The notes below the pieces were generated by a model, which was not told the origin of the DNA, did not search any database, and was given only the letters and a program-made list of their open reading frames with translations. The translations under genes and the position numbers were made by a program. From Candidatus Omnitrophota bacterium (GTDB taxonomy: Bacteria; Omnitrophota; Gorgyraeia; Gygaellales; Profunditerraquicolaceae), in contig JAUSED010000010.1 in the NCBI GenBank assembly GCA_030650425.1, positions 10,104 through 74,103 of the forward strand: DNA of 64,000 nt, written 5' to 3'. Within the stretch, counting starts at the first letter, position 1; every line of letters starts with the position of its first letter. Of this stretch, positions 1,489 through 39,084 are shown piece after piece.

Positions 1489-4400
1489 TTATGGCGTTAC
1501 AAGCTGCGGCTCGCGGGGCAAGATTTGGATTTGGGCCAAGCTAAGCTGGAGTTCGTTTTCAGGCTTACCGGATTCAATTAAGACTAACATATCTTCTAAT
1601 TCGGGTTCGGTCTCGGTTACCCTTTCTTCTTCCATACGTAGAATATTGGCGATACAACCCAAAACCTTACCCATTTGCCTGCCTAAAGCCTGCCTTAGGC
1701 AACTGGAGGCGACATATTCTTTAAGCCGCTGGTTGGAAGGGATAATCCCTGCCTTAAGCATATTTTCTATCTCGGCCCACTCTGCATCAAGGTTAAGATT
1801 GCTTAATCTGTTTATCTCGATAGGGCTAAGTTTAAGCATCGCTGGGTTAATCGGGCTGCTAACAGCGGGTAAAGCGCGAAAGTCGATGCCGCCTTTTTTA
1901 TCTTTATTTAAGATTATAGGTGAATTTACCGAAGAGACAGATTGCAAATTTTTCTTCCGGGATTCTTTGAAATTGTTCAACATTTCATAAGTAATAATAT
2001 TCTCTGGATCAAATATAACTATGGAGACATGATTTCCTACTGCTTCATCTCCGCGCCCTTCTCCCCCCTCCATACCTATAACTCCATCGTAACCTAAAGA
2101 TAAAATAAATATTCTAAAATCAAACCCCTGAGTTATACCATCAAACCATCCATCTACGCCAGTTTCTTTAGAACCTCCTCCCTGGCGTAATAAGATAGGT
2201 TTTTTATTGTGCCTCCTATACCGAATGTAAGTAAAAATCCTGTCTCTTAAAGCTACCCGGGCCCAATCCAAAGATAAACTTTCCAAATACTTTAACCATG
2301 CATTTATCACCTCATCTGGAACGTTATTTCTACAATCTAATAATTTACTCCTTATCAATCTTGCCGCTACAACTTGAGGGTTGCCCGTTATTTTCTGTTG
2401 CGTTCTTCTCAATGCATATTTCTGAGCTTGTTCAGTATTATCAGTAAAATAAAACCCTAATCCCATCGTATACTCCATATCTTTTGGGCTTAAAATAAAC
2501 TGCTCAAATTCTCTATTGGTGCCATGAAAAATCGCTCCATCTTCTAAGGCCCCTGCATTATTTGAGTTAAGCCTTATTGGCATAGAGAAATCCGCTTCAG
2601 ACATCTGAGCATATTTGTTTAAAGCCGCTTCCTTTTCTCCCTGGGTTATTGGCCTATAGGTTTCGGTTAACTCGACAGTAACTTCCGCCGCCAAAGAGGC
2701 GGGTTCCTGCTGCGCCGGCGAGGCGGCGGTATCAGGTAAATTAGAAACGGTCCCCTTCTCTTCTGCTAACGGTGAGCCGGAGGATTTAGGTAAATTAGGC
2801 CCCTTCCCTTTTTCTGCAGGCGTCTTCTTTTGCAGCCTTTCCCACTCTGAGGTTGACATCGGGATGCGCATGATTCCCCCGGGAATTAGTCTTACAGGAA
2901 GATTCAGTCCGTTATACCCAATTATCCGTCTTGCCGGAGAGAATCTCTTACCATAACTTTTCCCTTTGTTTTCGCCATAGTACTGACGGACAAGACTCTT
3001 AATGCTGTCTCCCTTCTTTACTTGATGTTCTACCACTTTGGCCTCCGGGATAAATATCTTCCAGCCTGGAGGGCCGATTGGAGTTTGCCCGTTTTTCTCT
3101 TCTGACAAAAGCCCATATTCATTTGCATCGGCTATTTGTGAATACTGATTCCTGTCTCCATAATAATAGAATGCCAATAAACTAAGGCTCTGGCCTTTTA
3201 AGGTTATATGGAGAACAGACTGATAAAAGAAAGGTGTCTTAATTGCTAACTTCTTTTTTAGTTTTTCCCTCCAAAGTTCCTTCGCTTCCAATATCCTTTC
3301 TGCCTCTTTTTTTAATTCTTTGCTCCAAGGTTCAGATTCCAGAATCTTTAAGGCATTTACCATCTCTTTTAAGAAAGTTTCGTCATTGCTATATAATACT
3401 GATTCCTTTCCGCTATATTTTTTTATAAATTCTTCAAAAAATGGTTCGAGCTTTATTAACTCCGCGCGATCAAAATCAACAAACTCTGCGGGTGAGTACT
3501 CCAATTTATTTAACGCCCTAATGCGCGCCCAGATATATGCTTTTTTATCTTCCACCATCTCTCTATAACGCGAAGAGGAATTATCGCATTTACGCAATAG
3601 TTCGAGCGCGTTATCCGCAAGCCGCCAACCACCACCGACTTCCAGAATATCATCTACTGTAGTATCTAAAGAGATAAGTGAGTTTTCTTCCTTACTGGCT
3701 ATATCATACAATTGTTTATCCGCCTTTAATTTACGTAACTCTTTTAAAGCATCTATGCGTGTTTTATCCACAACCTTTTTATTCTCAACGATATCTTTTA
3801 GCCCTTCTTTATAACCGAGCATTTTAAAAACAGCGAGTTGAGCCTCCTGAAATACGCTTTTTGTTGGTTTTTCTGCTTTATTTACTTTCTCTGGTTCTGT
3901 TTTTGCTGTCTTTTTTTCTAGAAAGGGCTTACTTTCTTTTTGCACAAATTTGCCTATATATCTAATTTCCTCTTGCATAAATTCAGTAGCGTCAAACGGC
4001 CGCCACCCAAAATCCTTATCGTGGATTAAGATAAGGGCATGCCCGGGATATTTAAGGATTGCGTTTGTCCCGCCTAAAGAATATCCTTCGGCATAAAGCG
4101 CATCCACACCTAAGTATCTAAACATTAACCAGACAAAAGAAGAAGTAGTGTCACATTCACCCCTAAACTTCTCGCCCTCTGCTAATGTATCTGCCAACCA
4201 GTCAAAATATGTTCCACTGGCTAATTCACTATCAAAATATTTATTATAAATAAAATTGTTTCTGATTATATCGCGCACTGCCTCTATTTTCTCCTCAAAA
4301 GGAGCATCCTTAGCGCTATCCAGTTTATCCTTTATCTCCCTGAGATGAGGGTTAGTTTTTAAGATTTGGAATTCTTTCGCCAGCTGAGGCGTTTCCCGCA

Positions 4401-7400
4401 TATCGGAACTGATATAATTATGCCTATCTCTCTCGACTACTCTTAACAAATCATAGGTTACAAAGGTTGCTTTAGTTTTCTTTAAGGCCCTCAGGCTAAT
4501 ACCATCATCACCAAGTTCTAAGGCTCCTTCTTGCCCTTCTATATTTCTTATAACTCTTCCCAGCAGAGAAAAAACAGGTATACTTTCTCCTTTGTTAAGA
4601 GCTGGTATTTTTACTTTTAGTTTAATCACTTTAGAGTTGTCTGTTTCTACGCCAGCCGCTTTAATCTCTTTAACATAAAATTCCCCCTTATTTCCTAACA
4701 TATTGTATAACCCGGAAAATAAATGCTCTCTCTCCAAAAGATATTCCCTTCCGGAAACAATCTCGGCGATCTGGGGATTATTAAAGTTAGAATCTGATTC
4801 CATCTTTTTTATAATGCTTCCTTCTCCGCGGGGTTTGGTAAAATTATCGGCAAGAGGGATAACACCCCACTTCTGCCGGGACTTTTCTTCTTGAGGGATT
4901 CTAAAGGGTTTCGTCTCTGGCGCTCCAGCATACCTATAAATATTAGGCGCCGCTTGCTGCGGGGAATCTACTTTTGAAGAGTAATTGAGAAAAGAATAAA
5001 TCCCAATATAATAAAGTGCCGCAAATAGCAATAGAAAAGGAATAAGAGGCGCATACTCGAAAACCTTAGAAATAAACCCAGTATGCTCCTTATTTACTTT
5101 TTCCGGGCTGCCTATTTCTTGTCCAACCAATATTCTTTCGGCTGTTTCTTTCGAAGGTAGTTCTTTCTTTTCTTCTGCCTCCTTCTGCCATTGAATAATC
5201 AACGCTCTCACCCACTCCAGATCTTCATCAGCATTAATTTTCGATAGATCAAGCGGCTCCAGAGAAATTTTCAACTGCGATCTTCTTGTATGTTGATTGT
5301 ATATAGATGTGCCGTCAGGAAAACTCAGGCGCCCTTTATCAAAGCTCCAACCTTCTATTTTATTTATCTCTCCTACGGGCGAAGAAACAGGTTTTTCCTG
5401 CGCCGACGAGGCGGGGGTATCAGCTAAATTAGAAACGGCCGCATTTCCCGTCCCCTTTTGCTCATTTTTCTCTAACCTCTCTAACAGTTGTGTTATATAA
5501 CCTATAATTTCTTGCCAGTAACGAGTATTTTCTTCTGATTCTAATCGTTTCTTTTCCTTAGTTAAAAACGTTTTTAATTCTTCTCTTGAGGAAAGCGGGA
5601 ATAGCTTGGGATTAATTTTTAATAAAGTCCTCATAGCCTCACGTTTCGCATAAAAGTCACCATCTTTATATTCTCGTAATATTGTAGCCAAAGGGGGTTT
5701 CTCTTTTACATACAATATGTCTTGATGCTGATTGGAGTAATCAAAGTATTTATCAGCTAAGATATCCTTCATTACGCTTTTATCTTCGCCTATCTTGCTC
5801 AAAATACCTCCTGATTTTAATAATGAATCTAAATAATGTGAAAGGGCATTCCGGGATTCTAATCCTAGGGGAACGTACTGTAAAACATGATGAACAAAAA
5901 GTATATCTAAATTACCCACTAAATTAGGCGTTGTTCCTGCTGAAACATCAGCAAGATCAACATCATAGAATTCTAAATGCGAATTCATTCTATCAGAACG
6001 TTTGTAACCTTTTAGCTCTTCCACAACATAAACCTCTTTAAAATAATCAGCCTTTTCTTTATCCGTGAAACCTGCGTTGTCTATAACAATTTTAGGGAAG
6101 ATAATCTGGTTATTCTTTACTCTGTCGTATACTTTATTCGAATAACTCATCACGTCCACTTTAACAGTTATAGCTTTCTCAATATCTTCACCTGGCCTAA
6201 GTTGCTCTAAAAGTATTTTAGGGATCTGGCGGCTAAAATATGCAACGGCTGTAATCGGTTCTTGCCCAGAGGCTGCTCCGATAACTCCGATTGTGATTAC
6301 TTGCTGCTGCCCTGTTCTACGGAATTCACTTAGTTTATCCTTAACCAAATCTCCGAAGCCAACCCTATTAGATATGCTTCTAAGAACATCATCATATCTG
6401 AAGAATTGAGACCATTGGTCAAAGATGAGTTCTACCAATATTTTATTCTTTCTCAATGCTTCAATAAAAGGTTGTTCATTAAAAGAATGCCTGGAATCAC
6501 CTCTTATGCGTGCTAAGACTTCCCATCCACTATGACCTAAGCGCGGAAAGAATTTCCTTTTTTCTTCTTTTATCGCTTTATCGATTTCTTCTTCAAAATT
6601 TGCTAAAACTAAATCAATTCTTTCAAAATCTCCTTTTTCTGTGCCAAAGACGCCAAACAAAGACTGCAATAATTCTTTCTTAACATCATTCGTTATGATT
6701 GGTTTACCTAATCCGGGAATAGATATCATTGGAATGGGAGCTTTTACATTTAACGACTGCTGAAAAGTAAACCGAGATTTTTTCATCAAATCCTTAATTA
6801 CACTTCTTACAGCCATTCCTCTAAAAACACTTACTTCTGCTAATTTCTCATATATTCCTTTTAAATAATAGTTACTTCCTTCTTTTATTTCTATTTGCAC
6901 CGCTGCCTGTAACACTAAATACAGAATTCTATCTTCCGTTTCGTGACCAAAAGCTCTTGGATTGATTAAAATTTGGTTGAATTTCCTTTCTATTGCCACA
7001 ACCGGACCATCTTCTCCTAAATCATAGGCACTTATCCTCCAAGAGGCTAATTTAAATTGATTAGATGTTCCGATTTTATCTAACTCATATTTTGACATGA
7101 ATTTATTGAATTCGTCAACTTGCATAACGCCAATAGCGGATGAGCTAGCTTGAATACCAATAACTAGCTTCTGCGCAATAGGTGCAAAAGAAGAGGCGCC
7201 TGATGGAGAAGGCCTTTCGGCTGGCGAAGCTTGAGACGAAGGTAACCCTTCTGTTATAGTTATATTAGTATCTGATGGGTTCATACCGTTTCCAATAACA
7301 GCTAAGACAGGCATATTATTATCGGTTAAAGGTGAAATACCTTTATCGCCGACTGTTTCAAAAAGACTTGTTGAATCTGTTACTATCTTGATAGGACTGC

Positions 7401-8739
7401 CAGACGTTGGAGAAACGGAAGAGAAAGGTATACCGCCTAGAGATAAGCCTCCGCTAAAATAGCTCCTAATCACCTGGCCAGTAGGAGTATAGGCTGGCTG
7501 TTGGATGTTGTATTCGCCGTCTTTAAAGGATTTTTGGTAGGCTTGGAAGTAGGTGGTTTTGGACCAAGGTTGTTGGGAAATAAGGTTGGTGAGGTTGCGG
7601 GAGTTGATGAGCGCAGAAGCTGCATCAGGGACAGTCCCCTGCGGGGACAGTCCCTGATGCCGAGGGAAAGTGTCCCCTGCTGCTGTTGCGTGTCTAGCTT
7701 TAAACCATTGGGCTAAGATTAAAGAATAATAGACTTGCCTTAAAGGGGCATAGCGTTTGGAGGTGTTTATATCTTTGGTGAGTTTGGGGATGATTAGTTC
7801 TCTGATTAATTGAGAGGAATATTCGTTTAATTGCTTTAGGCGATCATCTTTAAACTGATACTGCGCGTAGGGGACACTTTCCTTTAAAGAGTTCCCTGAT
7901 AGCCCTGACGGAAAATGTCCCCTGCTTTTACTCGAAAGATAATCAGACTCAAGCATTACTTTAAGGGTAGCTTTGTAGATGTAGGCCGACGGTGGCACTT
8001 CGACTCGCTTGCGCTCGCTCAGTGCGCTGGCTTCGCCAGCGGTTTCGCGGATGATGATTTCGCCCGGGACGATCCAAGGACGAGTTAAGGTGGGTATGGT
8101 GATGTTTTCGTTACCTAAGAGTTCACCTGCTTTTTGATAAAGCTTATCCCAGTAAAGCTTACCTTCGGGGGTTTCGGGAGAAGTGAATTTGGCAGTGTCT
8201 TTTTTAAGTTGGAGATCGGCTTCTAGAAGAATCTTACCTACGTCAGTCTTGGCTAAATAATCATCAATAATATTATCCTCTGCATCAGGGCGTAGGTTGA
8301 CCCAGAAGGAGCTGTTGGGAAGGGTAAGGCCGATGAAGAAATAATTTAAGAGAACCTTGGTTTCGTCTTTAAGTTTAGTTTCATCCAAGGGGACACTTTC
8401 CTTTGGGCCAGAAGGGGACACTTTCCTTTGAGTGGCTTCGCCATAGCTCTGACGGAAAGTGTCCCCTTCTGCAGAAGTTGGAAAATGTCCCCTGCTGTTC
8501 TTTTGGGGAAGCTGATCGCCCTTGTCTAAAAGAAGCTTAAAGCTGTTGTTTTCTGGAAGATATTGCAGGGAACGCAGATGCAAGGGGCGGAATTTGTCTG
8601 GGATAAGGGAATTACGGAAGAGAGCGAGATGGCCGGAGATATCCAGCTCGCCGGCGACTTGAGCAAAACCAGACTGCTCAAAAATTAACAAAAAGCAGAC
8701 TAAAAAATAGATAAATTTAGGGAATTTGCGTTTTGGCAT
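1489..8739 (-). CDS. Giant secreted multidomain protein (2416 aa). Signal peptide, transglutaminase-like Cys-His-Asp core, LysM-like segment. N- and C-terminal modules shared with the 44259..49622 paralog.
   Basis: Uninterrupted ORF. N-terminal MPKRKFPKFIYFLVCFLLIF hydrophobic signal. GECDTTSSFVWLMFRYLGV...H...D resembles a transglutaminase-like cysteine protease core. N-terminal ~400 aa and C-terminal ~130 aa align with the second giant ORF. Confidence 0.7.
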   Translation of the reverse strand: MPKRKFPKFIYFLVCFLLIFEQSGFAQVAGELDISGHLALFRNSLIPDKFRPLHLRSLQYLPENNSFKLLLDKGDQLPQKNSRGHFPTSAEGDTFRQSYGEATQRKVSPSGPKESVPLDETKLKDETKVLLNYFFIGLTLPNSSFWVNLRPDAEDNIIDDYLAKTDVGKILLEADLQLKKDTAKFTSPETPEGKLYWDKLYQKAGELLGNENITIPTLTRPWIVPGEIIIRETAGEASALSERKRVEVPPSAYIYKATLKVMLESDYLSSKSRGHFPSGLSGNSLKESVPYAQYQFKDDRLKQLNEYSSQLIRELIIPKLTKDINTSKRYAPLRQVYYSLILAQWFKARHATAAGDTFPRHQGLSPQGTVPDAASALINSRNLTNLISQQPWSKTTYFQAYQKSFKDGEYNIQQPAYTPTGQVIRSYFSGGLSLGGIPFSSVSPTSGSPIKIVTDSTSLFETVGDKGISPLTDNNMPVLAVIGNGMNPSDTNITITEGLPSSQASPAERPSPSGASSFAPIAQKLVIGIQASSSAIGVMQVDEFNKFMSKYELDKIGTSNQFKLASWRISAYDLGEDGPVVAIERKFNQILINPRAFGHETEDRILYLVLQAAVQIEIKEGSNYYLKGIYEKLAEVSVFRGMAVRSVIKDLMKKSRFTFQQSLNVKAPIPMISIPGLGKPIITNDVKKELLQSLFGVFGTEKGDFERIDLVLANFEEEIDKAIKEEKRKFFPRLGHSGWEVLARIRGDSRHSFNEQPFIEALRKNKILVELIFDQWSQFFRYDDVLRSISNRVGFGDLVKDKLSEFRRTGQQQVITIGVIGAASGQEPITAVAYFSRQIPKILLEQLRPGEDIEKAITVKVDVMSYSNKVYDRVKNNQIIFPKIVIDNAGFTDKEKADYFKEVYVVEELKGYKRSDRMNSHLEFYDVDLADVSAGTTPNLVGNLDILFVHHVLQYVPLGLESRNALSHYLDSLLKSGGILSKIGEDKSVMKDILADKYFDYSNQHQDILYVKEKPPLATILREYKDGDFYAKREAMRTLLKINPKLFPLSSREELKTFLTKEKKRLESEENTRYWQEIIGYITQLLERLEKNEQKGTGNAAVSNLADTPASSAQEKPVSSPVGEINKIEGWSFDKGRLSFPDGTSIYNQHTRRSQLKISLEPLDLSKINADEDLEWVRALIIQWQKEAEEKKELPSKETAERILVGQEIGSPEKVNKEHTGFISKVFEYAPLIPFLLLFAALYYIGIYSFLNYSSKVDSPQQAAPNIYRYAGAPETKPFRIPQEEKSRQKWGVIPLADNFTKPRGEGSIIKKMESDSNFNNPQIAEIVSGREYLLEREHLFSGLYNMLGNKGEFYVKEIKAAGVETDNSKVIKLKVKIPALNKGESIPVFSLLGRVIRNIEGQEGALELGDDGISLRALKKTKATFVTYDLLRVVERDRHNYISSDMRETPQLAKEFQILKTNPHLREIKDKLDSAKDAPFEEKIEAVRDIIRNNFIYNKYFDSELASGTYFDWLADTLAEGEKFRGECDTTSSFVWLMFRYLGVDALYAEGYSLGGTNAILKYPGHALILIHDKDFGWRPFDATEFMQEEIRYIGKFVQKESKPFLEKKTAKTEPEKVNKAEKPTKSVFQEAQLAVFKMLGYKEGLKDIVENKKVVDKTRIDALKELRKLKADKQLYDIASKEENSLISLDTTVDDILEVGGGWRLADNALELLRKCDNSSSRYREMVEDKKAYIWARIRALNKLEYSPAEFVDFDRAELIKLEPFFEEFIKKYSGKESVLYSNDETFLKEMVNALKILESEPWSKELKKEAERILEAKELWREKLKKKLAIKTPFFYQSVLHITLKGQSLSLLAFYYYGDRNQYSQIADANEYGLLSEEKNGQTPIGPPGWKIFIPEAKVVEHQVKKGDSIKSLVRQYYGENKGKSYGKRFSPARRIIGYNGLNLPVRLIPGGIMRIPMSTSEWERLQKKTPAEKGKGPNLPKSSGSPLAEEKGTVSNLPDTAASPAQQEPASLAAEVTVELTETYRPITQGEKEAALNKYAQMSEADFSMPIRLNSNNAGALEDGAIFHGTNREFEQFILSPKDMEYTMGLGFYFTDNTEQAQKYALRRTQQKITGNPQVVAARLIRSKLLDCRNNVPDEVINAWLKYLESLSLDWARVALRDRIFTYIRYRRHNKKPILLRQGGGSKETGVDGWFDGITQGFDFRIFILSLGYDGVIGMEGGEGRGDEAVGNHVSIVIFDPENIITYEMLNNFKESRKKNLQSVSSVNSPIILNKDKKGGIDFRALPAVSSPINPAMLKLSPIEINRLSNLNLDAEWAEIENMLKAGIIPSNQRLKEYVASSCLRQALGRQMGKVLGCIANILRMEEERVTETEPELEDMLVLIESGKPENELQLSLAQIQILPREPQLVTP
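7627..7680. repeat. Palindromic repeat, GGGGACAGTCCCC variant, inside giant ORF 1 in-frame
   Basis: cagggacagtcccctgcggggacagtccctgatgccgagggaaagtgtcccctgc. Translated in-frame as GDTFPRHQGLSPQGTVPD. Confidence 0.7.
7870..7925. repeat. Family A palindromic element (GGGGACACTTTCC...GGAAAATGTCCCC) inside giant ORF 1 in-frame
   Basis: ggggacactttcctttaaagagttccctgatagccctgacggaaaatgtcccctgc. Encodes SRGHFPSGLSGNSLKESVPY in the giant ORF. Confidence 0.75.
8389..8495. repeat. Compound family A element (two left arms plus long right arm) inside giant ORF 1 in-frame
   Basis: The same ~107-bp compound element recurs at 12304-12436 and 50308-50412 intergenically. Here it is translated as ...NSRGHFPTSAEGDTFRQSYGEATQRKVSPSGPKESVP.... 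Confidence 0.75.
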
Positions 8740-8755
8740 TTTTAGTTACGCTCCA

Positions 8756-8811
8756 GGGGACACTTTCCTTGAAAGAGTTCCCTGATAGCCCTGATGGAAA
8801 ATGTCCCCTGC
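8756..8811. repeat. Family A palindromic element just upstream of the giant ORF 1 start
   Basis: ggggacactttccttgaaagagttccctgatagccctgatggaaaatgtcccctgc. Confidence 0.75.
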
Positions 8812-8922
8812 GGGGTTTTTTTGCTGCCAGTCGTATGTTAATTCAAGTATACAATATAGGTAAGAGGATTCAAGGGGAAAGCGGGGATTTAGGGAAAGCG
8901 CTTTCTTTCGTAGCGAACTCGA

Positions 8923-12303: not shown

Positions 12304-12436
12304 AGGGGACACTTTCCTTTGGGCCAGAAGGGGACACTTTCCTTTGGGCCAGAAGGGGACACTTTCCATTGAGTGGCTTCGCCATAGCCCTGACGGAAAG
12401 TGTCCCCCTCTGCGGAAGTTGGAAAATGTCCCCTGC
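12304..12436. repeat. Compound family A element (three left arms), intergenic
   Basis: ggggacactttcctttgggccagaa x2 ... ggaaagtgtcccc...ggaaaatgtcccctgc. It generates spurious ORFs 12274..12594 and 12344..12550. Confidence 0.8.
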
Positions 12437-12472
12437 TGCTGGGGTTGCCATAAAATATATTTTCCTAGGGAC

Positions 12473-13178: not shown

Positions 13179-14147
13179 TTACTGTGCCCTGCTCCATGTC
13201 GAATCGGGATTATAACCTACCATAGCTCCCAGGATCTTATCGGTATCCGGCCCGAGATCTTTCTCATAGACAATACCATTCTGATTAACTATGAATGTCA
13301 TTATTCCTGAAACTGCGTATTCGGCCGGCCATGCTGCCAGCGCAAAACCAGCAACCATGTGTTCGTTAATCAAGTAGCTGTACGCGCCGCCCGGAGCGTT
13401 CGCGCCTTGAGCCGTGAGTATTTTATAATGGTAGCCGTGGTATGGCGCGGGAGATATCATGCAGACCTCACCGACCACGTAACCCTCCTTGCTGGCTGCG
13501 ACAAACAACGGGCCAAGGGGGCTCGGCGGTTCTCCTTCTGTCTCTTCCCAGAAAAGGCCGTCCCGTCTACCAGGCTCGCTGCAAAACTTCCGGGCGTATT
13601 GCATAACCCCATCCATGTCGCGGTCAATGCCGGCATACTCTCTCTGGGCCTGCACAAAAGCCTGACAAGAACTTATAGCGCGAAGCTCATTACGCCCGAT
13701 CCTGCGCTTCAAGAGTTCCTGAAGCCCATCGGCGGTATTAAAAACCCAGCCTGCCTCTTTCTTAACAATAGGAACAGCCATAGGATAACTATCTTTACCG
13801 AGAATGACAGAGACCGTTCCGTTATCGTCTACAAAATTTACTTTCTCCTTATAACTTTTTGCGAATTTAGCGCGGTTATTCTTATCAGCCACCGCATCTC
13901 CCGAATCGATTATATCCTTTCCTTCAGGGCCAAAAATGGCAAGCATTTTTTCCGCGTCATTGCTTTTAGCCGCCTTAACAAGCATTTCCATTGCCTCTTC
14001 CGGAGATTGAAATACGGTTTGAGCCTGGACCCCCCCAGGCGCAAAAAAGACAAAAAGCGTAACGGCCGTAAATAAGAAAACTCCAATAAACGCGGGCATT
14101 ATAAAACAAGCGAATTTTCTTTTCCTAAAATTATTTAATATAACCAT
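13179..14147 (-). CDS. DUF2950-family secreted protein
   Basis: Signal peptide, then QTVFQSPEEAMEMLVKAAKSNDAEKMLAIFGPEGKDIIDSGDAVADKNNRAKF, which is typical of DUF2950. Partnered with a DUF3300 gene. Confidence 0.6.
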   Translation of the reverse strand: MVILNNFRKRKFACFIMPAFIGVFLFTAVTLFVFFAPGGVQAQTVFQSPEEAMEMLVKAAKSNDAEKMLAIFGPEGKDIIDSGDAVADKNNRAKFAKSYKEKVNFVDDNGTVSVILGKDSYPMAVPIVKKEAGWVFNTADGLQELLKRRIGRNELRAISSCQAFVQAQREYAGIDRDMDGVMQYARKFCSEPGRRDGLFWEETEGEPPSPLGPLFVAASKEGYVVGEVCMISPAPYHGYHYKILTAQGANAPGGAYSYLINEHMVAGFALAAWPAEYAVSGIMTFIVNQNGIVYEKDLGPDTDKILGAMVGYNPDSTWSRAQ

Positions 14148-14204
14148 CTTCTCCCTCCCGATTATTTAAATTTATACTTATAATTCCACAATACGGCTTA
14201 GGGT

Positions 14205-15611
14205 TCACCGGCGGTTGTCTCTCCGGTCTTCACCTCTGCGGTCCTGTCTGCTATCGCTCCTGCTTCCGCCGCCCCCTCTACTACCGTCGTCGCCTTGGCG
14301 CGAACGTCCGCTACCTCCCCTAACCCTAATCTCCTGTGTGCTGGATTGCCCGCGAAAGCTAGCTGCGCGTTCGCTTCCGCCTCTACCCACGCCGCTAAAG
14401 ACGTTGACATTTTCTCTGCCGCGGCCGGAAATTACAGGCCTCGCGGCTTCCTGAAGCTGAGCGCCACGGGATAGAGAACCCGTTGCCTGCCGAGGCCTTT
14501 CGCTAACTTGCGCCCTATCTCTGCCTCTCAATTCAACCCTCGGAATCTCTCTGGATTGCCTGCCACGGCCACTGGATCCTCTCATTTGTTCCGAAGGCCT
14601 TGCGCCTACCGCGGTTCCAGCGCCGCTAATACGATCCGACGGCCCTGACTGAACTTGAGCGCGGCCGCGAAATTCAGAAGCAGCTTCCGCCCTCTCTGAA
14701 GACCTGGAAACACGCCGGCCCTCAAAACGCTGAGCCGTAATTGAATCGCGATACTTCACGCCCCTGCGATACCGAGAGTCATGATGCCAGGCGTCATATT
14801 TTTTCCCCCTGTCGACATGAAAACGGTTCACGTGCCTAAAGTTCTTGACTACAAAAACATTAAAATTGCTGACATGGATAAATACGCCATGGAAACGCCA
14901 GTCGCAAAAAAATGATCCCCATCCCCACCACGCGTTGACATAATACCCTCTCAAAAACGGGCCTCTTATATATCCGGGATAATAGCAGTAATATGGCGGA
15001 TAATCCGGATACCACCAGGTACCGTATATTACACCAGGGTCATATACCGGCACATATACTATTTTCGGTTCGGCTGACTCAATGACTATTATTTTTGTTT
15101 CAGTATCAACCTTAACGGCCTGCTCTTTGCCTGATTTAAGATTACCCTGCGCGTAAGCTTTTTGTCTCAGGCGCTGGACGGAATCCATCACATCGCGCTG
15201 CTGGGCAAGAAAAGCGTTTCCTAATTTAGTGGTCCACTCCAACTGGCTATCCATCATTATCAATACATCAGGGAACTGAAGCAGCGCCTTAACACTCGGC
15301 TCCCAATCCCTGTCAATAGCCGCATCTATCAAGGCCTGTTCCTTTAACCCGGAGTTATCCTTTATAAACCTGCTAGCAGAAACGATATCCAAGGGGTAAG
15401 TCGCAGCCGTGAGAACCTGCGCCAGAAGCGCGTCAGGATACAAAGCAATGGGCGCGAGCATCTGGTCTAATTCTTCCGGCCTGAAAGCTTGCTCAATATT
15501 CTCTGCAGGCATGGTATCGGTATATTCCTGCGCCCTCGCCGCAAACGGAAGAACGAGTAAGGATAAAAAAACGAATAGCATCGCGCGTTTAAGATTTCTT
15601 TCCTTCTTCAT
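14205..15611 (-). CDS. DUF3300-family secreted protein with long R/G/S/D-rich low-complexity C-terminal tail
   Basis: LAPIALYPDALLAQVLTAATYP hallmark. C-terminal ~170 aa is RG/SR-rich. Confidence 0.65.
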   Translation of the reverse strand: MKKERNLKRAMLFVFLSLLVLPFAARAQEYTDTMPAENIEQAFRPEELDQMLAPIALYPDALLAQVLTAATYPLDIVSASRFIKDNSGLKEQALIDAAIDRDWEPSVKALLQFPDVLIMMDSQLEWTTKLGNAFLAQQRDVMDSVQRLRQKAYAQGNLKSGKEQAVKVDTETKIIVIESAEPKIVYVPVYDPGVIYGTWWYPDYPPYYCYYPGYIRGPFLRGYYVNAWWGWGSFFCDWRFHGVFIHVSNFNVFVVKNFRHVNRFHVDRGKKYDAWHHDSRYRRGVKYRDSITAQRFEGRRVSRSSERAEAASEFRGRAQVQSGPSDRISGAGTAVGARPSEQMRGSSGRGRQSREIPRVELRGRDRAQVSERPRQATGSLSRGAQLQEAARPVISGRGRENVNVFSGVGRGGSERAASFRGQSSTQEIRVRGGSGRSRQGDDGSRGGGGSRSDSRQDRRGEDRRDNRR

Positions 15612-25430: not shown

Positions 25431-26483
25431 TCAATCTTTACTTATATACAGCTTCTGCGTAGGATAGGCAAACTCTATGCCCCGTTTTTCAAACTCTTCC
25501 TTAATCGCGAAATTAATCTCCTGCTGGACATCCATATATTTGTTGTAATCGGGAGTTAAAACAAAATACACGACCTCAAAGATGAGGCTAAAATCCCCAT
25601 AACTAAAAAAGTGTGCGCGGTCAAAAGCCGTGTCTTTGGTATTCTTAACGACACGCTCGATGATCTTGGGAATTTCCTTTAATTGGCTAAGAGAAGTCTG
25701 ATAAGTAACGCCTATACGAAATAAAATACGCCTTTTCTCCATAAGCCTATAATTACGAACCCGGGAGTCTGTAAGGTCGGTGTTAGAGAATATTACCTGT
25801 TCGCCGCCCAAGCTGCGTATGCGCGTGGTTTTTATCCCTATATACTCAACGGTACCCATGAAATCACCGATGATTATAAAATCCCCTATTTTGAAGGGAT
25901 GGTCAAAGACTATAGAAAAATAGCTGAAGAAATCTTTCAGGAGCGCCTGCGCGGCTATTGCTACTGCAATACCGCCGATTCCTAATCCGGCAATTAACGT
26001 AGAGACTTTATAACCAAGGTTATCTAATAGAATTATAACCGCCAAGGCCCAAATCAAAAATTTAACGGCCCATAACATACCATCAAGGCTGCGCACCACC
26101 GTGGGATCCTGCTGCTTTTTGGTAAGATATGTATTAATCCCCCAACCGGCAAGCATAACCACTATGCGCGCGGCAAAAAAAGTGATAATAATCATCTCAA
26201 AAGTGTTGATCAAAGCGCCGGCTGCGGAAGGTAATTTTAATGTTTTGGCGCTCACATAAAAACAACTGATGTATAATGCCGGCAGGCCGATCTTTGACAG
26301 AATTGATACTAAAAAATTATCGAATCTTGTAGTAGTTCTTTCCGCTATTTTTTTAAGACGCCTTATAAAGAAGAGGATAACCACTTTAACAAACAACAGG
26401 GTTAAGAATAACGTTACTAAAGCGATAATATAATCCAAAATACGGTTGCCAAAAAATACCTGCTCTAAAATTTTTAGATCCAT
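25431..26483 (-). CDS. Mechanosensitive ion channel, MscS family
   Basis: Three N-terminal TM helices and an MscS beta domain (GTVEYIGIKTTRIRSLGGEQVIFSNTDL). Confidence 0.85.
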   Translation of the reverse strand: MDLKILEQVFFGNRILDYIIALVTLFLTLLFVKVVILFFIRRLKKIAERTTTRFDNFLVSILSKIGLPALYISCFYVSAKTLKLPSAAGALINTFEMIIITFFAARIVVMLAGWGINTYLTKKQQDPTVVRSLDGMLWAVKFLIWALAVIILLDNLGYKVSTLIAGLGIGGIAVAIAAQALLKDFFSYFSIVFDHPFKIGDFIIIGDFMGTVEYIGIKTTRIRSLGGEQVIFSNTDLTDSRVRNYRLMEKRRILFRIGVTYQTSLSQLKEIPKIIERVVKNTKDTAFDRAHFFSYGDFSLIFEVVYFVLTPDYNKYMDVQQEINFAIKEEFEKRGIEFAYPTQKLYISKD

Positions 26484-26497: not shown

Positions 26498-26580
26498 AAA
26501 AAGCCATCCCGCATTCTAATGCAAGATGGCGGCCCGACCATCGATAATCCTCCAGAGATATTTAAATATCTCTGAACCAC
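26498..26580 (-). promoter_or_regulatory. Candidate cis-regulatory structured RNA (riboswitch/attenuator-like) in the mscS leader
   Basis: Minus sense: hairpin CAGAGATATTTAAATATCTCTG; conserved hairpin GATGG-UCGGGCCG-CCAUC; alternative terminator GCCAUC...GAUGGC plus U6 directly before RBS GAGGAG. Paralogous copy at 29893-29970 with a compensatory hairpin. Confidence 0.5.
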
Positions 26581-27909: not shown

Positions 27910-28869
27910 TTATTTATCCAGCGACTTCAGATATTTATAATAATCGCTGTCGGTAGTCAGGATTACCGTTGAATTTGCGTCAATAGTGCCCCTATACGTT
28001 TCCAGCGTCTTAAGAAAAGAATAAAATTCGGGATTCTGCTCATAAGAGGTAGCGTAAATATTAATTGCTTCGGCGTCGGCTTTACCGACAATAGACTGCG
28101 CTTGCTTGTAAGCCTCTGAAGTTATTAACTTAAGTTCTTTACCGATCTGGCCCTCTATTTCGGCCGCTTTCCCAAACCCCTCCGAGCGGTATTTTTCAGC
28201 GGCGCGTTTTCTCTCCGCAATCATCCTGTCGTAAACTTTATTTCGGACCTCTTCCACATAATTTATGCGTTTGATACGCACATCCAGAATCTCAATCCCG
28301 TATTGGGGAGCAAGCACTTTTGCCTTTTCCAGTATAGAGCGAGTCAACTTCTGCCTTCCCATTTCTATACGTTCAAGCGCCTCTTCGCTGACTATGGCAT
28401 CTTCCCCTAAATCCTTACTCTCAAGTATGCGGTTAGAATCCCTTACCGCCTCAACCAGAAGATTACCGGTAACAGCATCCCTGGTAGCTGAATTAATAAT
28501 ATCGTTTAGCCTGCTGCTTGCGCTTGTTTCATTACCCACAGACTGTAGGAATTTCAAGGCATCCACTATTTTCCAGCGCGCCGTGGTATCTACCCAGATA
28601 TATTTCTTGTCTTTTGTGGGTATTTGGTTCGGATCGCCGTCCCATTCCAAGAGCCTCTTCTCAAAATAATGCGCCTCTTGTATCAAGGGAATTTTAAAAT
28701 GCAAGCCAGCGGAAGTTATGGGTTCTCCGACTGGTTTACCGAACTGGGTAATCACTACTTGTTTTGTTTCATCAACTATAAATAACGCCCCGCTGGCAAA
28801 GGCAAGCAAAACAATTACAGCCGGGAAAATAATTAACCCCAAAATAGTCCCTAATCTGCCCTCTTTCAT
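27910..28869 (-). CDS. hflC: Protease modulator HflC (SPFH/band 7)
   Basis: N-terminal TM, then FIVDETKQVVITQFGKPVGE. Overlaps the hflK stop. Confidence 0.85.
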   Translation of the reverse strand: MKEGRLGTILGLIIFPAVIVLLAFASGALFIVDETKQVVITQFGKPVGEPITSAGLHFKIPLIQEAHYFEKRLLEWDGDPNQIPTKDKKYIWVDTTARWKIVDALKFLQSVGNETSASSRLNDIINSATRDAVTGNLLVEAVRDSNRILESKDLGEDAIVSEEALERIEMGRQKLTRSILEKAKVLAPQYGIEILDVRIKRINYVEEVRNKVYDRMIAERKRAAEKYRSEGFGKAAEIEGQIGKELKLITSEAYKQAQSIVGKADAEAINIYATSYEQNPEFYSFLKTLETYRGTIDANSTVILTTDSDYYKYLKSLDK

Positions 28870-29861
28870 TGCTGCGGCCCTCCTTTCTTGCCTATATCCA
28901 ATAACGGCAATATGGAAGATTGCCTTGGGTCAATAATATATTTTTCTTTCACCTTGGGCAAGACCTCGGCAAGGGCTTCAAGATAGAGCCTCTTACGGGT
29001 AATCTCCGGGGCTTTCTTATATTCTCCCAGGGTCACTAAAAACCTTTCCGACTCGCCCTTGGCCCTGTTTATCTTATCCAGGGAATATCCCTCTGCTTCG
29101 CGGATAGTCCGCTCCGCTTCTCCTTTGGCCTTTGGTATGGCCTTATTATATGCCTCCCAGGCCTGATTGATCATCTTCTCTTTTTCCTGTTTTGCCTCAT
29201 TAACTTCGTTAAAAGCCGGCTTTACCTTATCCGGAGGATTTACATCCAGCAGTTTCACCGTAATGACCTGCACGCCGGTCTGATAATCATCTAGAATCCT
29301 CTGCATTTCAACTTGAGCTAAGTGGTCTACTTCTTCCCTTTTAATAGTCAACACCTCATCCACGGTGTAATCTCCCACCAGCCGGCGCATGACTATTTCA
29401 GAGACATCCCTTATAACATTAACCGGGTTACGCACGACAAAAAGGAGCTTAATGGGGTCTTTTATTTTAAATTGCACAATCCAGCGAACGTCGAGTATGT
29501 TTAAATCTCCGGTAAGCATTAACGACTGTTCTAAATTCGAGCCGTAAGAACGCGTACTCACTAAACCCGAGCTCCCTCCCCCAAACTCTTCCTTGAATAT
29601 TTTTTCTACTTTTATCGGCGTTACCTTATCAATGCCAAAGGGAATCTTAACGTGCAAGCCGGGTGAACTTAATTCTGTATATTTACCGAACCTCTGCATG
29701 ACCCCTACTTCATCCGGGCCTATTGAATAGATTACCCCTCTTAGACCTATAATAATAAGCAGGCCAAATATTATCCAGGGGATATACTTGCCATAATCGG
29801 ATAATTTCTTTTTGCCTACATCGATTATATCGTCCGGGCTAGGAACATTTTGCCAGTCCAT
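28866..29861 (-). CDS. hflK: Protease modulator HflK (SPFH/band 7)
   Basis: GPDEVGVMQRFGKYTE...VKLLDVNPPDKVKPAFNEVNEAKQEKEKMINQA. Confidence 0.85.
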   Translation of the reverse strand: MDWQNVPSPDDIIDVGKKKLSDYGKYIPWIIFGLLIIIGLRGVIYSIGPDEVGVMQRFGKYTELSSPGLHVKIPFGIDKVTPIKVEKIFKEEFGGGSSGLVSTRSYGSNLEQSLMLTGDLNILDVRWIVQFKIKDPIKLLFVVRNPVNVIRDVSEIVMRRLVGDYTVDEVLTIKREEVDHLAQVEMQRILDDYQTGVQVITVKLLDVNPPDKVKPAFNEVNEAKQEKEKMINQAWEAYNKAIPKAKGEAERTIREAEGYSLDKINRAKGESERFLVTLGEYKKAPEITRKRLYLEALAEVLPKVKEKYIIDPRQSSILPLLDIGKKGGPQQ

Positions 29862-29892: not shown

Positions 29893-29970
29893 AAAAAAAC
29901 AAAACCACCAACTGCAATTTCGCAGATGGCGGCCCGACCATCTAAACCTTCAGGAAATCTTCCTGAACCC
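29893..29970 (-). promoter_or_regulatory. Second copy of the candidate cis-regulatory RNA, in the hflK leader
   Basis: Same GATGGTCGGGCCGCCATC hairpin. The variable hairpin TTCAGGAAATCTTCCTGAA has different sequence but keeps pairing. The alternative terminator CCAtCTGC...GCAGtTGG plus a U-rich run precedes RBS AAGGAG. Confidence 0.5.
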
Positions 29971-36194: not shown

Positions 36195-36362
36195 CCCCTA
36201 TTTTCTAGAGAATTGCCTTTAGATTCTAATGTCTAAACTCATAATAACGTTCCTTTGTTATTGATTATATTCTACCTCGGTTTTTGAGTTTTACAATCGA
36301 AAAGACGGGATTGCTTCGGCTGCTGCGCTGCCTCGCAATGACGGGGGAGCTAAAAAAACAAG

Positions 36363-36436
36363 GGGACACTTTCCTTTAAAAAGTAACAAATAGCTCTGAC
36401 GGAAAATGTCCCCTTCAATTACTGTGTCCCCTGCTG
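36363..36436. repeat. Family A element
   Basis: ggggacactttcctttaaaaagtaacaaatagctctgacggaaaatgtcccc...gtgtcccctgc. Confidence 0.8.
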
Positions 36437-36441
36437 CGGAA

Positions 36442-36834: not shown

Positions 36835-36854
36835 GCACCCCCTTTCGGTGATCA

Positions 36855-36909
36855 GGGGACACTTTCCTTTTGAAAGTTCCACATAGCTCTGACGGAAAAT
36901 GTCCCCTAC
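36855..36909. repeat. Family A element
   Basis: ggggacactttccttttgaaagttccacatagctctgacggaaaatgtcccctac. Confidence 0.8.
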
Positions 36910-36990
36910 TGATGACTTAATTATATAAAAATAGGGGTAAGTTGGGAATTGGGCGGGGACACTTTTTATGGATGTTTTTCTACTAGAAGA

Positions 36991-37053: not shown

Positions 37054-37059
37054 AAGAAG

Positions 37060-38955: not shown

Positions 38956-38984
38956 AGGACCTCATTAATGTATAGGGGACACTT

Positions 38985-39030: not shown

Positions 39031-39084
39031 TGTGCGACGACTGTTTCTTGCGAAAGGGTTGCTGTGAGTGTTATGGAAATAGAG

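Follow-up and report, generated by a model that had tools for sequence, protein, structure and literature searches.

Fixed terminal modules and exchanged cargo in two large paralogous proteins of an Omnitrophota genome

The stretch of DNA analysed here (64,000 nucleotides, the window) raises the question of what kind of protein begins and ends like another protein encoded nearby and differs from it almost everywhere in between. Large proteins of the Omnitrophota have been described as poorly conserved, with few annotated domains and poorly understood roles (PMC10066038). The two genes concerned, referred to as g1 and g2, are recorded at NCBI as part of a Candidatus Omnitrophota MAG, on a contig of 83,942 bp.

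1489-8739, minus strand: g1, bookended protein of 2416 aa (MDO8662854.1), ORF uninterrupted
44259-49622, minus strand: g2, bookended protein of 1787 aa (MDO8662894.1, Q7K98_06725), ORF uninterrupted

Both reading frames are intact and without frameshift, in agreement with the preliminary description of this DNA. By BLASTP the N-terminal 460 aa of the two proteins share 307 identities (67%, E 4e-177) and the C-terminal 155 aa are 45% identical (E 6e-30), and all the motifs from which shared termini had first been proposed fall inside these regions. They consist of high-complexity sequence. The middles had been called unrelated, and at the protein level this holds, since only short AASPAQ(K/Q)E linker peptides align outside the termini; at the DNA level, however, a linker repeat of 17-41 nt is common to both genes at five domain boundaries. 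No third copy of either module was found in the whole window by tblastn with the N- and C-modules as queries. Giant genes had also been presumed typical of the Omnitrophota, and this is indeed an Omnitrophota genome, but at 1.8-2.4 kaa the two proteins are far smaller than the published giants of the phylum.

The shared termini (the bookends) resolve into a leader and two modules.

8662-8739, minus strand: g1 Sec-type signal peptide, aa 1-26 (MPKRKFPKFIYFLVCFLLIFEQSGFA, next residue Q), from sequence features
7447-8661, minus strand: g1 N-module, aa 27-431, with in-frame repeat insertions, 67% identical to g2
1492-1893, minus strand: g1 C-module, aa 2283-2416, starting with GGIDFR, from BLASTP and family alignments
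49548-49622, minus strand: g2 signal peptide, aa 1-25, from sequence features
48444-49547, minus strand: g2 N-module, aa 26-393, from BLASTP against g1 and homolog search
44262-44627, minus strand: g2 C-module, aa 1666-1787, seven helices in the AlphaFold model (pLDDT 86, pTM 0.76)

The g1 leader begins with K/R-rich sequence, followed by some 12 uncharged residues and by G-F-A ahead of the likely cleavage point, a pattern that we judged from sequence features to be present in 51 of 62 family members. The proteins had been labelled surface proteins; what a typical Sec signal peptide suggests is export alone. The N-module is a conserved alpha/beta domain of about 340-400 aa (pLDDT above 90 over residues 50-340 in the AlphaFold model of the homolog P0007) and has no match in Pfam, NCBIfam, PDB sequences or Foldseek searches of the PDB. 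The C-module is, as modelled, an all-helical domain, about 125 aa long and with an invariant GGIDFR at its start; it matches nothing in Pfam or NCBIfam, and its best Foldseek E-value against the PDB is 0.54. In the alignments it contains one nearly invariant cysteine (C91 in A6) and two further positions where cysteine is common. The only match below E 0.1 in PDB profile searches of the two modules, that of the C-module to a designed PPR protein (E 2.5e-5), was set aside as helical-repeat noise, no single stretch passing by itself. Similarly, when 62 N-modules were compared with Pfam at E<=1, eight had weak matches to EC042_2821 (E at least 0.029), which we regard as noise, and the other matches were scattered. 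The bookends are under strong constraint, with N-modules 49-91% identical across the phylum (mean 0.57, minimum 0.49), and the pairwise identities of N- and C-modules are correlated (Spearman 0.61).

Searching with the patterns FWVNLRPD and RPWIVPxE recovered 433 N-module loci in species-representative genomes, almost all of them Omnitrophota, and a protein search gave 333 homologous proteins. Among the best 80 of the 433 loci, at least 14 genomes carry two to four copies. The C-module stands exactly at the end of 41 of 49 complete N-module genes, and in seven of the remaining eight it is found downstream of a frameshift or stop; in 99 sequences it ends at most 19 aa from the C-terminus. Lengths range from 600 to at least 6439 aa, the smallest members (about 600 aa) being made of N-module, linker and C-module and nothing else, and the 6439-aa protein (P0131) being bookended as well. 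Both g1 and g2 have the Sec-type leader, the FWVNLRPD/RPWIVPxE N-module, the terminal GGIDFR C-module and the [AS]SP[AILVM] linkers that define the family. They are paralogs within an Omnitrophota-wide and apparently undescribed family with fixed start and end modules. The cargo enclosed by these, domains that fold independently and are joined by Ser/Pro-rich linkers, amounts to anything from zero to more than 6000 aa. The linker motif occurs family-wide at 1.22 per 1000 aa against 0.14 expected, with four instances in g1 and eight in g2, and SSP[IV] is regularly placed just ahead of the C-module.

Two small and well-conserved domains, both with confident predicted structures, provide in this way a first fixed handle on a whole class of large Omnitrophota proteins, from 600 aa to more than 6 kaa; a genome has several of them, in part at fixed places in the chromosome. 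As a simple sequence rule, the bookends permit the cataloguing of cargo throughout the phylum, and they are targets for expression, structure determination, use as bait and antibodies.

The cargo of each protein, beginning with g1, resolves as follows.

4999-5055, minus strand: internal hydrophobic helix, aa 1229-1247, possible transmembrane segment (predicted; Kyte-Doolittle 1.89, 19-residue window)
3988-4335, minus strand: transglutaminase-like core, aa 1469-1584 (Pfam PF01841 Transglut_core, 27.8 bits, cut-off 23)
2860-3222, minus strand: LysM-like segment(s), aa 1840-1960 (two weak profile matches)
2281-2532, minus strand: ART-fold domain (DUF3990 / ART-PolyVal), aa 2070-2153 (Pfam segment scan, PADLOC)

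A transglutaminase-like Cys-His-Asp core had been seen in the letters of g1, and it stands: the Pfam score exceeds the curated cut-off and the predicted triad (Cys1529, His1567, Asp1583) is present. The LysM-like segment fared less clearly, with an NCBIfam LysM match at aa 1840-1882 (E 4e-6) but a Pfam LysM score of 17.6 bits, below the cut-off of 20.9; the NCBIfam match, to PRK11198, is local and far below the whole-protein cut-off of that family. Scanned as a separate segment, the ART-fold domain passes two curated cut-offs, at 35.4 bits against 32.2 and at 32.4 bits against 31.2, and it has a PADLOC match to PDC-M13A (E 5e-8). A CheR-like methyltransferase suspected by eye (GVIGAASGQEPIT) was left unassigned, Pfam giving no support. 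Within the limits of the word index, the search for homologs of the g1 cargo returned g1 alone. The cargo of g2 is made of four modules:

47814-48173, minus strand: module A, aa 484-603, no assigned function (one homolog, P0138)
47070-47789, minus strand: module B, aa 612-851, putative divergent class I SAM-methyltransferase-like (profile search against the PDB)
45828-46838, minus strand: module C, aa 929-1265, no assigned function (homologs P0125, P0146, P0149, P0150)
44733-45377, minus strand: module D, aa 1416-1630, no assigned function (12 homologs)

The transglutaminase-like Cys-His-Asp pattern seen by eye in module A was rejected, the cysteine being a serine in its sole homolog and Pfam giving no match. 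Module B has no Pfam match either, and 20 of its 21 weak matches in the PDB profile search are SAM methyltransferases (best E 0.0017); it has a conserved LN(I/V)GxGxNP motif, and its homologs sit at varied positions within other long proteins. Module D has no match among PDB sequences, and two of its homologs (P0126 and P0127) are stand-alone proteins, each with a signal peptide of its own.

Compared with 80 family members, the cargo of g1 and g2 shows no similarity at E<1e-3. Positional orthologs located after rsmI (in the order dnaN-gyrB-gyrA-glmS-rsmI) and after a cyclophilin gene have cargo that ranges from unrelated to mosaic, close orthologs differ by shifted blocks and by insertions or deletions of whole modules, and the cargo modules of g2 are found again elsewhere along other long proteins. 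Cargo changes by whole modules, which are inserted, deleted or replaced, at syntenic loci as well. Across the family the census of cargo comprises transglutaminase-like, LysM-like, ART-like, methyltransferase, PGK, iPGM, PGM/PMM, guanylate kinase, HD, GNAT and HEAT/TPR domains. The early picture of a modular family that keeps its termini and exchanges its cargo is upheld by the 433 N-module loci, the 41 of 49 C-module ends, the non-homologous cargo at syntenic positions and the conversion tract described below.

The neighbourhood of the two genes contains RecG, a FemAB-like gene, a DUF6577 gene, a cyclophilin, Mla genes and PGI. Immediately downstream, g1 is followed by the DUF6577 gene and g2 by a secreted protein of 125 aa, an ORF of 123 aa and then PGI, the 125-aa and 123-aa ORFs having no family match. 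No downstream gene is conserved across the 80 loci, and among 620 clustered neighbouring ORFs there is only housekeeping synteny, with no dedicated secretion, protease or chaperone gene. A viral origin was discounted, the N-module having two matches in 2.9 million IMG/VR viral contigs; PHROGs gives weak matches only, of unassigned function.

At the DNA level the two genes share the following features.

7453-7956, minus strand: gene-conversion tract, g1 aa 262-429, counterpart in g2 at 48450-48947 (aa 226-391), located by a step in third-position identity
5377-5417, minus strand: g1 linker repeat, aa ~1107-1121 (PASSAQEKPVSS), direct repeat D7
2689-2729, minus strand: g1 linker repeat, aa ~2003-2017 (AASPAQQEPASL), direct repeat D7
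45429-45469, minus strand: g2 linker repeat, aa ~1384, direct repeat D7
47061-47101 (aa ~840), 47751-47791 (aa ~610) and, degenerate, 48183-48223 (aa ~466), minus strand: further g2 linker repeat copies
8838-8907, minus strand: 5' leader and promoter block common to g1 and g2 (g2: 49642-49711), 77% over 70 nt, direct repeat D19

In codons for identical residues, third-position identity reaches 0.8-0.9 within the tract, compared with 0.4-0.6 on its upstream side, 0.2 on its downstream side and 0.40 in the C-module, and the direct repeats D3 and D8 are 88-92% identical. The two genes have recently recombined, by a conversion tract of about 500 nt that stops at the boundary between N-module and cargo. 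The family offers a clean natural case of domain cassettes evolving between fixed ends, in which the recombination of g1 and g2 is caught under way. Only these two genes carry the linker DNA repeat. The idea that such repeats serve generally for recombination was rejected: none of 19 same-genome paralog pairs from other genomes shares a cargo 18-mer, and the linker repeat is specific to this genome. The 5' flanks, also proposed to be homologous, align over the block listed above, but part of the similarity is due to a dispersed palindromic repeat whose copies (GGGGACAGTCCCC) adjoin it. Within this block, upstream of g1, there is a sigma-70-like site, TTGAAT-16-TATACT (8873-8846, minus strand).

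Several known systems resemble this architecture in part. The MARTX toxins, large secreted proteins of Vibrio and its relatives, have conserved regions at both termini and between them unrelated effector domains that vary among strains through recombination; these toxins leave by type I secretion, with a signal at the C-terminus instead of a Sec leader, and an ABC/MFP/TolC system is encoded next to them. The constant terminal regions around a central array of swapped, unrelated domains are alike in both cases. However, g1 and g2 lack GGxGxD RTX repeats (pattern GG.G.D) and a Peptidase_C80 domain (Pfam, E<=0.1 for whole proteins and E<=1 for separate segments), they have a Sec-type leader instead of a type I signal, there is no ABC/MFP/TolC system among their neighbours, and their bookends are globular domains with no fold match in the PDB, the family being present as several ancient paralogs per genome. 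A second parallel is offered by the polyvalent proteins of phages and conjugative elements, reportedly described by Iyer, Burroughs, Anand, de Souza and Aravind in 2017, from which we take Pfam ART-PolyVal and DUF3990 to derive. Like these, g1 strings together unrelated enzymatic domains, DUF3990/ART-PolyVal above cut-offs among them (segment scan), but g1 and g2 lie in an ordinary chromosome, with orthologs in dnaN-gyrB-gyrA-glmS-rsmI synteny, and both the signal peptide and the constant bookends are features that polyvalent proteins are not known to have. Type IX secretion CTD proteins and autotransporters combine an N-terminal Sec signal with a conserved C-terminal domain, and LapA-type adhesins an N-terminal retention module with a C-terminal signal. 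The logic is alike: a variable passenger is enclosed by an N-terminal element for export or retention and a C-terminal element, both of them constant. Nevertheless, the C-module is modelled as a bundle of seven helices, not as a beta-sandwich CTD (Por_Secre_tail) or a beta-barrel, and has no Pfam match, and the N-module is a large globular domain of about 350 aa, to our knowledge more conserved than any known retention module.

A further comparison is with the Omnitrophota giants already published (Archaeovorins, dockerin-type proteins and 'multi-enzyme metabolic clusters'), which are described as poorly conserved and are encoded by ORFs of more than 20 kb or at least 10 kaa long (bioRxiv 10.1101/2023.11.21.568195; bioRxiv 10.64898/2026.06.07.730766; PMC10066038). 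They belong to the same phylum and share with g1 and g2 signal peptides or transmembrane helices, Pfam domains of cytoplasmic type (methyltransferase, PGM, HD, HEAT, GNAT) and a poorly conserved body. They differ in that g1 and g2 have no dockerin, TSP3, C39 or SecA domains by Pfam and are not beside a type II secretion/pilus locus or pilZ genes. Keyword searches of these three sources, and the sections read, gave no conserved pair of N- and C-terminal bookends.

From the architecture and evolution of the family documented above we infer its function, and favour with moderate confidence the reading that g1 and g2 are exported strings of enzymes on constant handling modules, two paralogs of an Omnitrophota-wide modular family. 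The polypeptide would be exported through Sec and its signal peptide cut after GFA; the constant N- and C-modules would be the handles by which some conserved component of the cell keeps the protein, displays it or hands it on, and the variable enzymes would have as their target the cell envelope or a partner cell, at its surface or inside it. The acting cargo would be the transglutaminase-like Cys-His-Asp domain, the LysM-like segment and the ART-like domain in g1, and the methyltransferase-like domain with three modules without assigned function in g2. We favour export because of the family-wide signal-peptide pattern, the stand-alone homologs of module D with their own signal peptides, the LysM-like segment of g1 and the cysteines of the C-module. 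A signal peptide or transmembrane helices are present in 94% of long Omnitrophota proteins (bioRxiv 10.64898/2026.06.07.730766). Much recognisable cargo counts against export, specifically PGK, iPGM, PGM, guanylate kinase, GNAT, SAM-methyltransferase and ART; such domains are normally cytoplasmic and need ATP, SAM or NAD, and a location in the periplasm or at the surface is therefore awkward unless the proteins enter another cell. The internal hydrophobic helix of g1 would, in a simple topology, return the half with the LysM-like and transglutaminase-like parts to the cytoplasmic side. The housekeeping neighbours of family members, among which no dedicated secretion or processing gene is conserved, likewise speak against the favoured reading, and so does the restriction of the linker DNA repeat to this genome. 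Along these lines, the N- and C-modules could be recognition elements of a novel Omnitrophota protein-handling system that exports enzymes of cytoplasmic type (glycolytic enzymes, kinases, methyltransferases, ART-like domains) to or into a host or prey cell, an idea that we consider doubtful. If true, these episymbiotic nanobacteria would have their effector repertoire in the bookended family, to which the larger published giants might belong as extreme cases.

It is unlikely, in our estimation, that the proteins are instead polyprotein precursors, exported as one chain and cut by a dedicated protease at the [AS]SP[AILVM] linkers and/or at the GG of GGIDFR, freeing the enzymes in the manner of MARTX autoprocessing or of viral polyproteins. 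The bookends would then serve as pro-domains or as platforms for the processing; such a scheme is compatible with the favoured reading and adds to it an obligatory cleavage step. The 8.7-fold enrichment of the linker motif, its location at domain boundaries and the regular SSP[IV] ahead of the C-module are what such processing would predict, and the transglutaminase-like Cys-His-Asp domain of g1 is of the papain superfamily. For giant Omnitrophota proteins, West-Roberts et al. have suggested cleavage by C39 and S8 peptidase domains (bioRxiv 10.1101/2023.11.21.568195). However, no protease domain is common to the family, g2 has none detectable (its Cys-His-Asp pattern is not kept in the homolog), and a Ser/Pro-rich linker may equally be a flexible or glycosylated spacer.

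It appears improbable to us that the hydrophobic segment at the N-terminus stays uncleaved as an anchor, the string of enzymes being an intracellular fused metabolon on a cytoplasmic, membrane-tethered scaffold. Such a scaffold would explain why the census is so rich in enzymes of cytoplasmic type (PGK, iPGM, PGM/PMM, guanylate kinase, HD, GNAT, methyltransferases) and agrees with the housekeeping synteny of some members, beside dnaN-gyrB-gyrA-glmS. Yet the charged start, the short uncharged run and the G-F-A end are typical of a cleaved Sec signal, and the orientation would put the bulk of the protein outside; g1 has a LysM-like segment, LysM being a binder of peptidoglycan, and module D of g2 has homologs with their own signal peptides. 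On topology grounds Nielsen & Lui dropped the same reading for a protein of 147 kaa (bioRxiv 10.64898/2026.06.07.730766).

Of similarly low probability is a self-assembling coat or fibre, in which the N-module would bind the C-module of the next molecule, or both modules one envelope receptor, to give a surface layer displaying the variable domains. The joint conservation of both ends could be read in this sense, although the correlation of their identities may reflect shared descent only. The same applies to interrupted members such as L020, in which the N-module and the cargo with C-module are separate ORFs, a 'Rosetta-stone' hint of a functional link; the break in L020 lies at an A7 homopolymer, however, and could stem from a sequencing error or from phase variation. 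V. archaeovorus has been called 'coated' (PMC10066038), but the single-chain AlphaFold model gives no confident docking of the N- on the C-module (pTM 0.59, disordered linker). Finally, it is very improbable that the family is a polymorphic toxin system of the classical kind, or one for contact-dependent competition, that relies on cognate immunity genes: the variable cargo and the ART-like and transglutaminase-like domains of g1, common in toxins, would suit it, but the variable part is internal and the C-terminus constant, no small gene is conserved downstream and no immunity gene is evident, many members sit at conserved core-gene positions, and the cargo includes HEAT/TPR repeats and glycolytic enzymes, so that 'polymorphic' here does not amount to 'polymorphic toxin'.

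A further observation concerns the in-frame insertions of the N-module, which are palindromic elements.

8388-8499, minus strand: dispersed palindromic element of 112 nt, in frame in g1 (aa ~81-117) and missing in g2 (gap in the g2 alignment)
7869-7925, minus strand: palindromic element of 57 nt, in frame in g1 (aa ~271-290, SRGHFPSGLS..KESVP), g2 counterpart at 48860-48916 (direct-repeat search)

The first recurs between genes at 12329-12440 and 50307-50418, with 96-98% identity, and the second has 13 copies, nine of them intergenic; within the window, only g1 and g2 have such elements in coding sequence. They recall the Rickettsia palindromic elements, said to have been described by Ogata et al. 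in 2000, from which they differ in sequence and phylum. The likeness is one of repeats and not of protein families: in both cases short, dispersed elements lie in frame within coding sequence and are translated as loop peptides.

The two giant paralogous genes, g1 and g2, are intact in the window as the preliminary description had them, each an uninterrupted ORF with no break:

1489-8739, minus strand: g1, 2416 aa
44259-49622, minus strand: g2, 1787 aa

At NCBI they correspond to MDO8662854.1 (named 'transglutaminase domain-containing protein') and MDO8662894.1 (named 'hypothetical protein Q7K98_06725'), both from an 83,942-bp contig of a Candidatus Omnitrophota MAG. The shared ends described for the pair were recovered by BLASTP of g1 against g2, with 67% identity over the first 460 aa (E 4e-177, the N-module) and 45% over the last ~155 aa (E 6e-30, the C-module). 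The middles (the cargo) had been called unrelated, and no cargo alignment was obtained; this has to be softened for short AASPAQ(K/Q)E peptides, which do align, and for a linker DNA common to both genes. Five domain boundaries of g1 and g2 carry this identical GC-rich linker, CTGCGCCGGYGAGGCGG (plus strand). The rest of the window and 82 other loci lack it, and it is specific to this genome. The homology of the 5' flanks also held (8838-8907 against 49642-49711, 77%); a promoter-like site lies inside this common flank, preceded by a GGGGACTGTCCCC hairpin with a T-run. A tblastn search of the whole window with the modules found no third copy, and the genes around g1 and g2 are ordinary chromosomal ones (RecG, a FemAB-like acetyltransferase, a DUF6577 protein, cyclophilin, the Mla system, PGI, Dus, ABC-F and others).

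Both proteins start with 3-4 Lys/Arg, an uncharged run of ~12 residues and then QQSGFA|Q, a pattern found again in 51 of 62 family members (median 25 residues up to GFA). Judged by sequence, it looks like a textbook Sec signal peptide of the cleaved type. The domain structure behind it is as follows:

g1 aa 431, g2 aa 393: end of the N-module (...IRSYFSGG)
g1 aa 1229-1247: hydrophobic helix
g1 aa 1469-1584: transglutaminase-like core (PF01841, 27.8 bits against a cut-off of 23)
g1 aa 1840-1960: LysM-like segments, weak evidence
g1 aa 2070-2153: ART-fold domain, which clears the cut-offs of DUF3990 and ART-PolyVal if its segment is scanned alone
g2 aa 484-603: module A
g2 aa 612-851: module B
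g2 aa 929-1265: module C
g2 aa 1416-1630: module D
g1 from aa 2283, g2 from aa 1666: C-module, from GGIDFR to the stop codon

The C/H/D core that had been read in g1 is above the PF01841 cut-off with C1529, H1567 and D1583 in place, and the LysM-like segment of the same description stays a weak candidate. No match was found for the rest of the g1 cargo, and in a word-indexed search of 5.8 billion proteins the sole match to the whole g1 centre was g1 itself. The g2 cargo had no Pfam match, and in an exhaustive HMMER search it divided into the four modules, whose relatives differ from module to module. The module B profile hit SAM-dependent methyltransferases in 20 of its 21 matches, all of them weak (best E 0.0017), and stand-alone homologs of module D (P0126 and P0127) have signal peptides of their own.

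The bookends are two unannotated domain families, with no match in Pfam, NCBIfam, PHROGs or PADLOC and none to PDB sequences, profiles included. For a minimal member (P0007) AlphaFold2 predicts with confidence that residues 50-340 form an alpha/beta N-module (pLDDT above 90), after which the linker is disordered; for the g2 C-module (43 sequences) it gives a confident bundle of seven helices (pLDDT 86, pTM 0.76). These ends are constrained: pairwise identity of the N-module has a mean of 0.57 and a minimum of 0.49 across the sampled phylum, ~70 of its columns are invariant (62 sequences), and one Cys of the C-module is nearly invariant (C91 in A6), further Cys positions being common.

The distribution is phylum-wide. 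With the g2 N-module as query 333 proteins were found, some of them fused to PGK, GAPDH, enolase, PGM, HD or HEAT domains, and the named homologs come nearly all from Omnitrophota MAGs (52-71% identity). Scanning a single genome for each species confirmed 433 N-module loci; counted among the best 80 of these loci, 2-4 copies occur in at least 14 genomes. The few records labelled Planctomycetales, Margulisiibacteriota or Thermodesulfovibrionia are MAG bins that may carry the wrong label, and only two matches appeared among 2.9 million viral contigs. In the 80 fetched loci the ORFs that begin with the N-module vary from 440 to >3700 aa. The C-module is the exact end in 41 of the 49 complete ones; seven of the remaining eight have it downstream of the ORF, past a stop or in a different frame, which gives 48 N-modules out of 49 a C-module partner. 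In a further 99 sequences no more than 19 residues separate the end of the C-module from the C-terminus. The bookend architecture is the rule across the N-module family, from minimal members of ~600 aa that consist only of N-module, disordered linker and C-module (P0003, P0005, P0006, P0007, P0016) to the 6439-aa P0131, which is bookended too.

One family gene (L020:1640-1700, = P0047) is broken at the first residues of a GGI motif (...NSLDNGGI and stop), where an A7 homopolymer directly precedes the break. It is continued in the +1 frame by an ORF that begins ATGGAGGAATAT, with a C-module ~1700 codons on, and the identical 440-aa product is on record for 12 contigs; the interruption may be genuine (a split gene or a phase variant) or an error of sequencing at the homopolymer. 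Of two C-module fragments, P0218 (236 aa) has an intein splicing domain (PF14890) among its precomputed Pfam domains and P0217 carries PF01934; there may be inteins within family members.

Between the constrained ends the cargo turns over. None of 80 family members has cargo similar to that of g1 or g2 at E<1e-3, and this includes the positional orthologs of g2 located 3' of the cyclophilin gene (L011, L017, L026, L062; 1566-2971 aa), despite their equal position. A second position is the conserved co-directional block dnaN-gyrB-gyrA-glmS-rsmI-[N-module gene], present at 17-18 loci (L005, L008, L010, L015, L019, L022, L023, L027, L028, L035, L040, L044, L045, L050, L063, L064, L073). The proteins there vary from 1867 to >3756 aa, and many pairs are without any common cargo while their N-modules are still 55-70% identical. 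This replication-gene block is the core-genome position of one paralog lineage, an uncommon place for a gene that is hypervariable. Between close orthologs blocks are shifted and whole modules inserted or deleted (L017 393-610 with L062 635-852; L017 1694-2354 with L062 842-1498; L019 1977-2313 with L027 1278-1614, 91%), and g2 cargo modules reappear at very different positions in other long proteins, bookended or not. Most cargo in a Pfam census of 35 regions was unannotated, the rest containing HEAT and TPR repeats, metallophosphoesterase, PGK, guanylate kinase, iPGM, PGM/PMM, HD, GNAT and methyltransferases; the motif [AS]SP[AILVM] occurs at domain boundaries at 8.7 times the expected frequency. 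The modular family suggested from two genes, with ends kept and cargo exchanged, is supported well outside the window: by the 433 N-module loci, by the paired ends of the complete genes and by cargo that many genes at syntenic loci do not share. L046 and L056 carry an N-module gene next after PGI-Dus, and none stands there in the window, which may reflect the loss of a family member.

Recent recombination has affected g1 and g2 themselves. Paralogs of one genome elsewhere have N-modules 57-66% identical, and each is nearer to an ortholog from a different genome (up to 0.91), so the paralogs are old lineages. The exceptions are L025/L057 from one genome (0.85) and g1/g2 (0.76-0.77, above the identity of either to anything else), the latter because of a local tract of high third-position identity in the codon alignment. 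Scored at codons for identical residues, this identity is 0.4-0.6 over g1 aa 1-261, 0.8-0.9 over g1 aa 262-429 (nt 7453-7956, against g2 nt 48450-48947), 0.2 just beyond the N-module end and 0.40 in the C-module. The tract, bounded 5' by an in-frame palindromic element and 3' by the N-module/cargo boundary, is the product of a recent gene conversion. The C-modules are of different subtypes (that of g2 is 70% identical to the C-module of a 609-aa member and only 50% to that of g1), which makes g1 and g2 mosaics.

Dispersed palindromic elements, resembling the Rickettsia palindromic elements, are translated in frame within both N-modules as extra loop peptides (SRGHFP...KESVP, GTVP, GLSP). They are of three kinds: a 57-nt family GGGGACACTTTCC...GGAAAATGTCCCC (13 copies), a 112-nt composite (three copies, 96-98% identity) and pairs of GGGGACAGTCCCC. 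Outside the g1 and g2 N-modules all copies in the window are intergenic:

7627-7655, 7869-7925, 8388-8499, 48615-48671, 48860-48916, 49342-49374: copies inside the N-modules
8755-8811, 12329-12440, 36360-36416, 36853-36909, 38974-39030, 39756-39812, 41702-41758, 50307-50418: examples of intergenic copies

The latter are dense around the ABC-F, zinc-finger and Dus genes (36300-41800). The tetrapeptide GTVP that the elements encode occurs about 17 times as often as expected in the family proteins of many MAGs (36 found, 2.1 expected) and is present in C-module loops too.

As to function, we propose that the proteins would be exported via Sec, that the constant modules would serve as handles by which a conserved partner keeps the protein, displays it or hands it on, and that the target of the cargo would be the envelope or a partner cell. 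Export is favoured by the signal-peptide shape in the family, the LysM-like segment of g1 (a weak match), the signal peptides on stand-alone relatives of module D, the nearly invariant and other common Cys of the C-module, and the published topology statistics for long Omnitrophota proteins (bioRxiv 10.64898/2026.06.07.730766). The chief problem for it is that ATP, SAM or NAD is required by much of the recognisable cargo, so that export is easy to explain only if the proteins reach the cytoplasm of another cell. Such delivery would fit the episymbiotic or predatory lifestyle proposed for Omnitrophota (bioRxiv 10.1101/2023.11.21.568195; PMC10066038). Competing readings are a polyprotein with obligatory processing, a tethered scaffold in the cytoplasm, self-assembly through an N-C interaction and a classical polymorphic toxin; the reading that we prefer is export with the constant modules as handles.

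MARTX toxins, with conserved ends around exchangeable central effectors, are the closest analogue in logic, but of its defining features the three that were tested (RTX repeats, type I secretion and the cysteine protease domain) all fail for g1 and g2. Polyvalent proteins, like g1, string enzymes together and have an ART-PolyVal/DUF3990 domain; unlike g1 and g2, they are encoded on mobile elements. We regard the bookended family as a variation on known modular secreted multi-effector proteins, built on two unannotated domain families. A keyword search of published work on Omnitrophota giant proteins (bioRxiv 10.1101/2023.11.21.568195; bioRxiv 10.64898/2026.06.07.730766; PMC10066038) found no conserved N/C pair, and one of these papers stresses poor conservation (PMC10066038).

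Other features of the window are these:

13179-15611, minus strand: adjacent gene pair, DUF2950 (E 1e-107) and DUF3300 (E 2e-80)
26524-26579, minus strand: nhaA-I (Na+-sensing) riboswitch match, upstream of an MscS-like channel gene (25431-26483)
29924-29970, minus strand: nhaA-I (Na+-sensing) riboswitch match, upstream of the ORF 28866-29861
61849-61965, minus strand: 5S rRNA gene
62199-63432, minus strand: 3' part of the 23S rRNA gene, at the window end
62560-63099, minus strand: LAGLIDADG homing endonuclease ORF (LAGLIDADG_1, E 5e-25)
63447-63986, minus strand: LAGLIDADG homing endonuclease ORF (LAGLIDADG_2, E 1e-30)

Since Rfam model positions 2049-2912 of the 23S rRNA are stretched over 1234 nt and two LAGLIDADG ORFs are found, the gene appears to be interrupted by endonuclease-encoding introns. 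Both riboswitch matches score 47 bits against a cut-off of 37.
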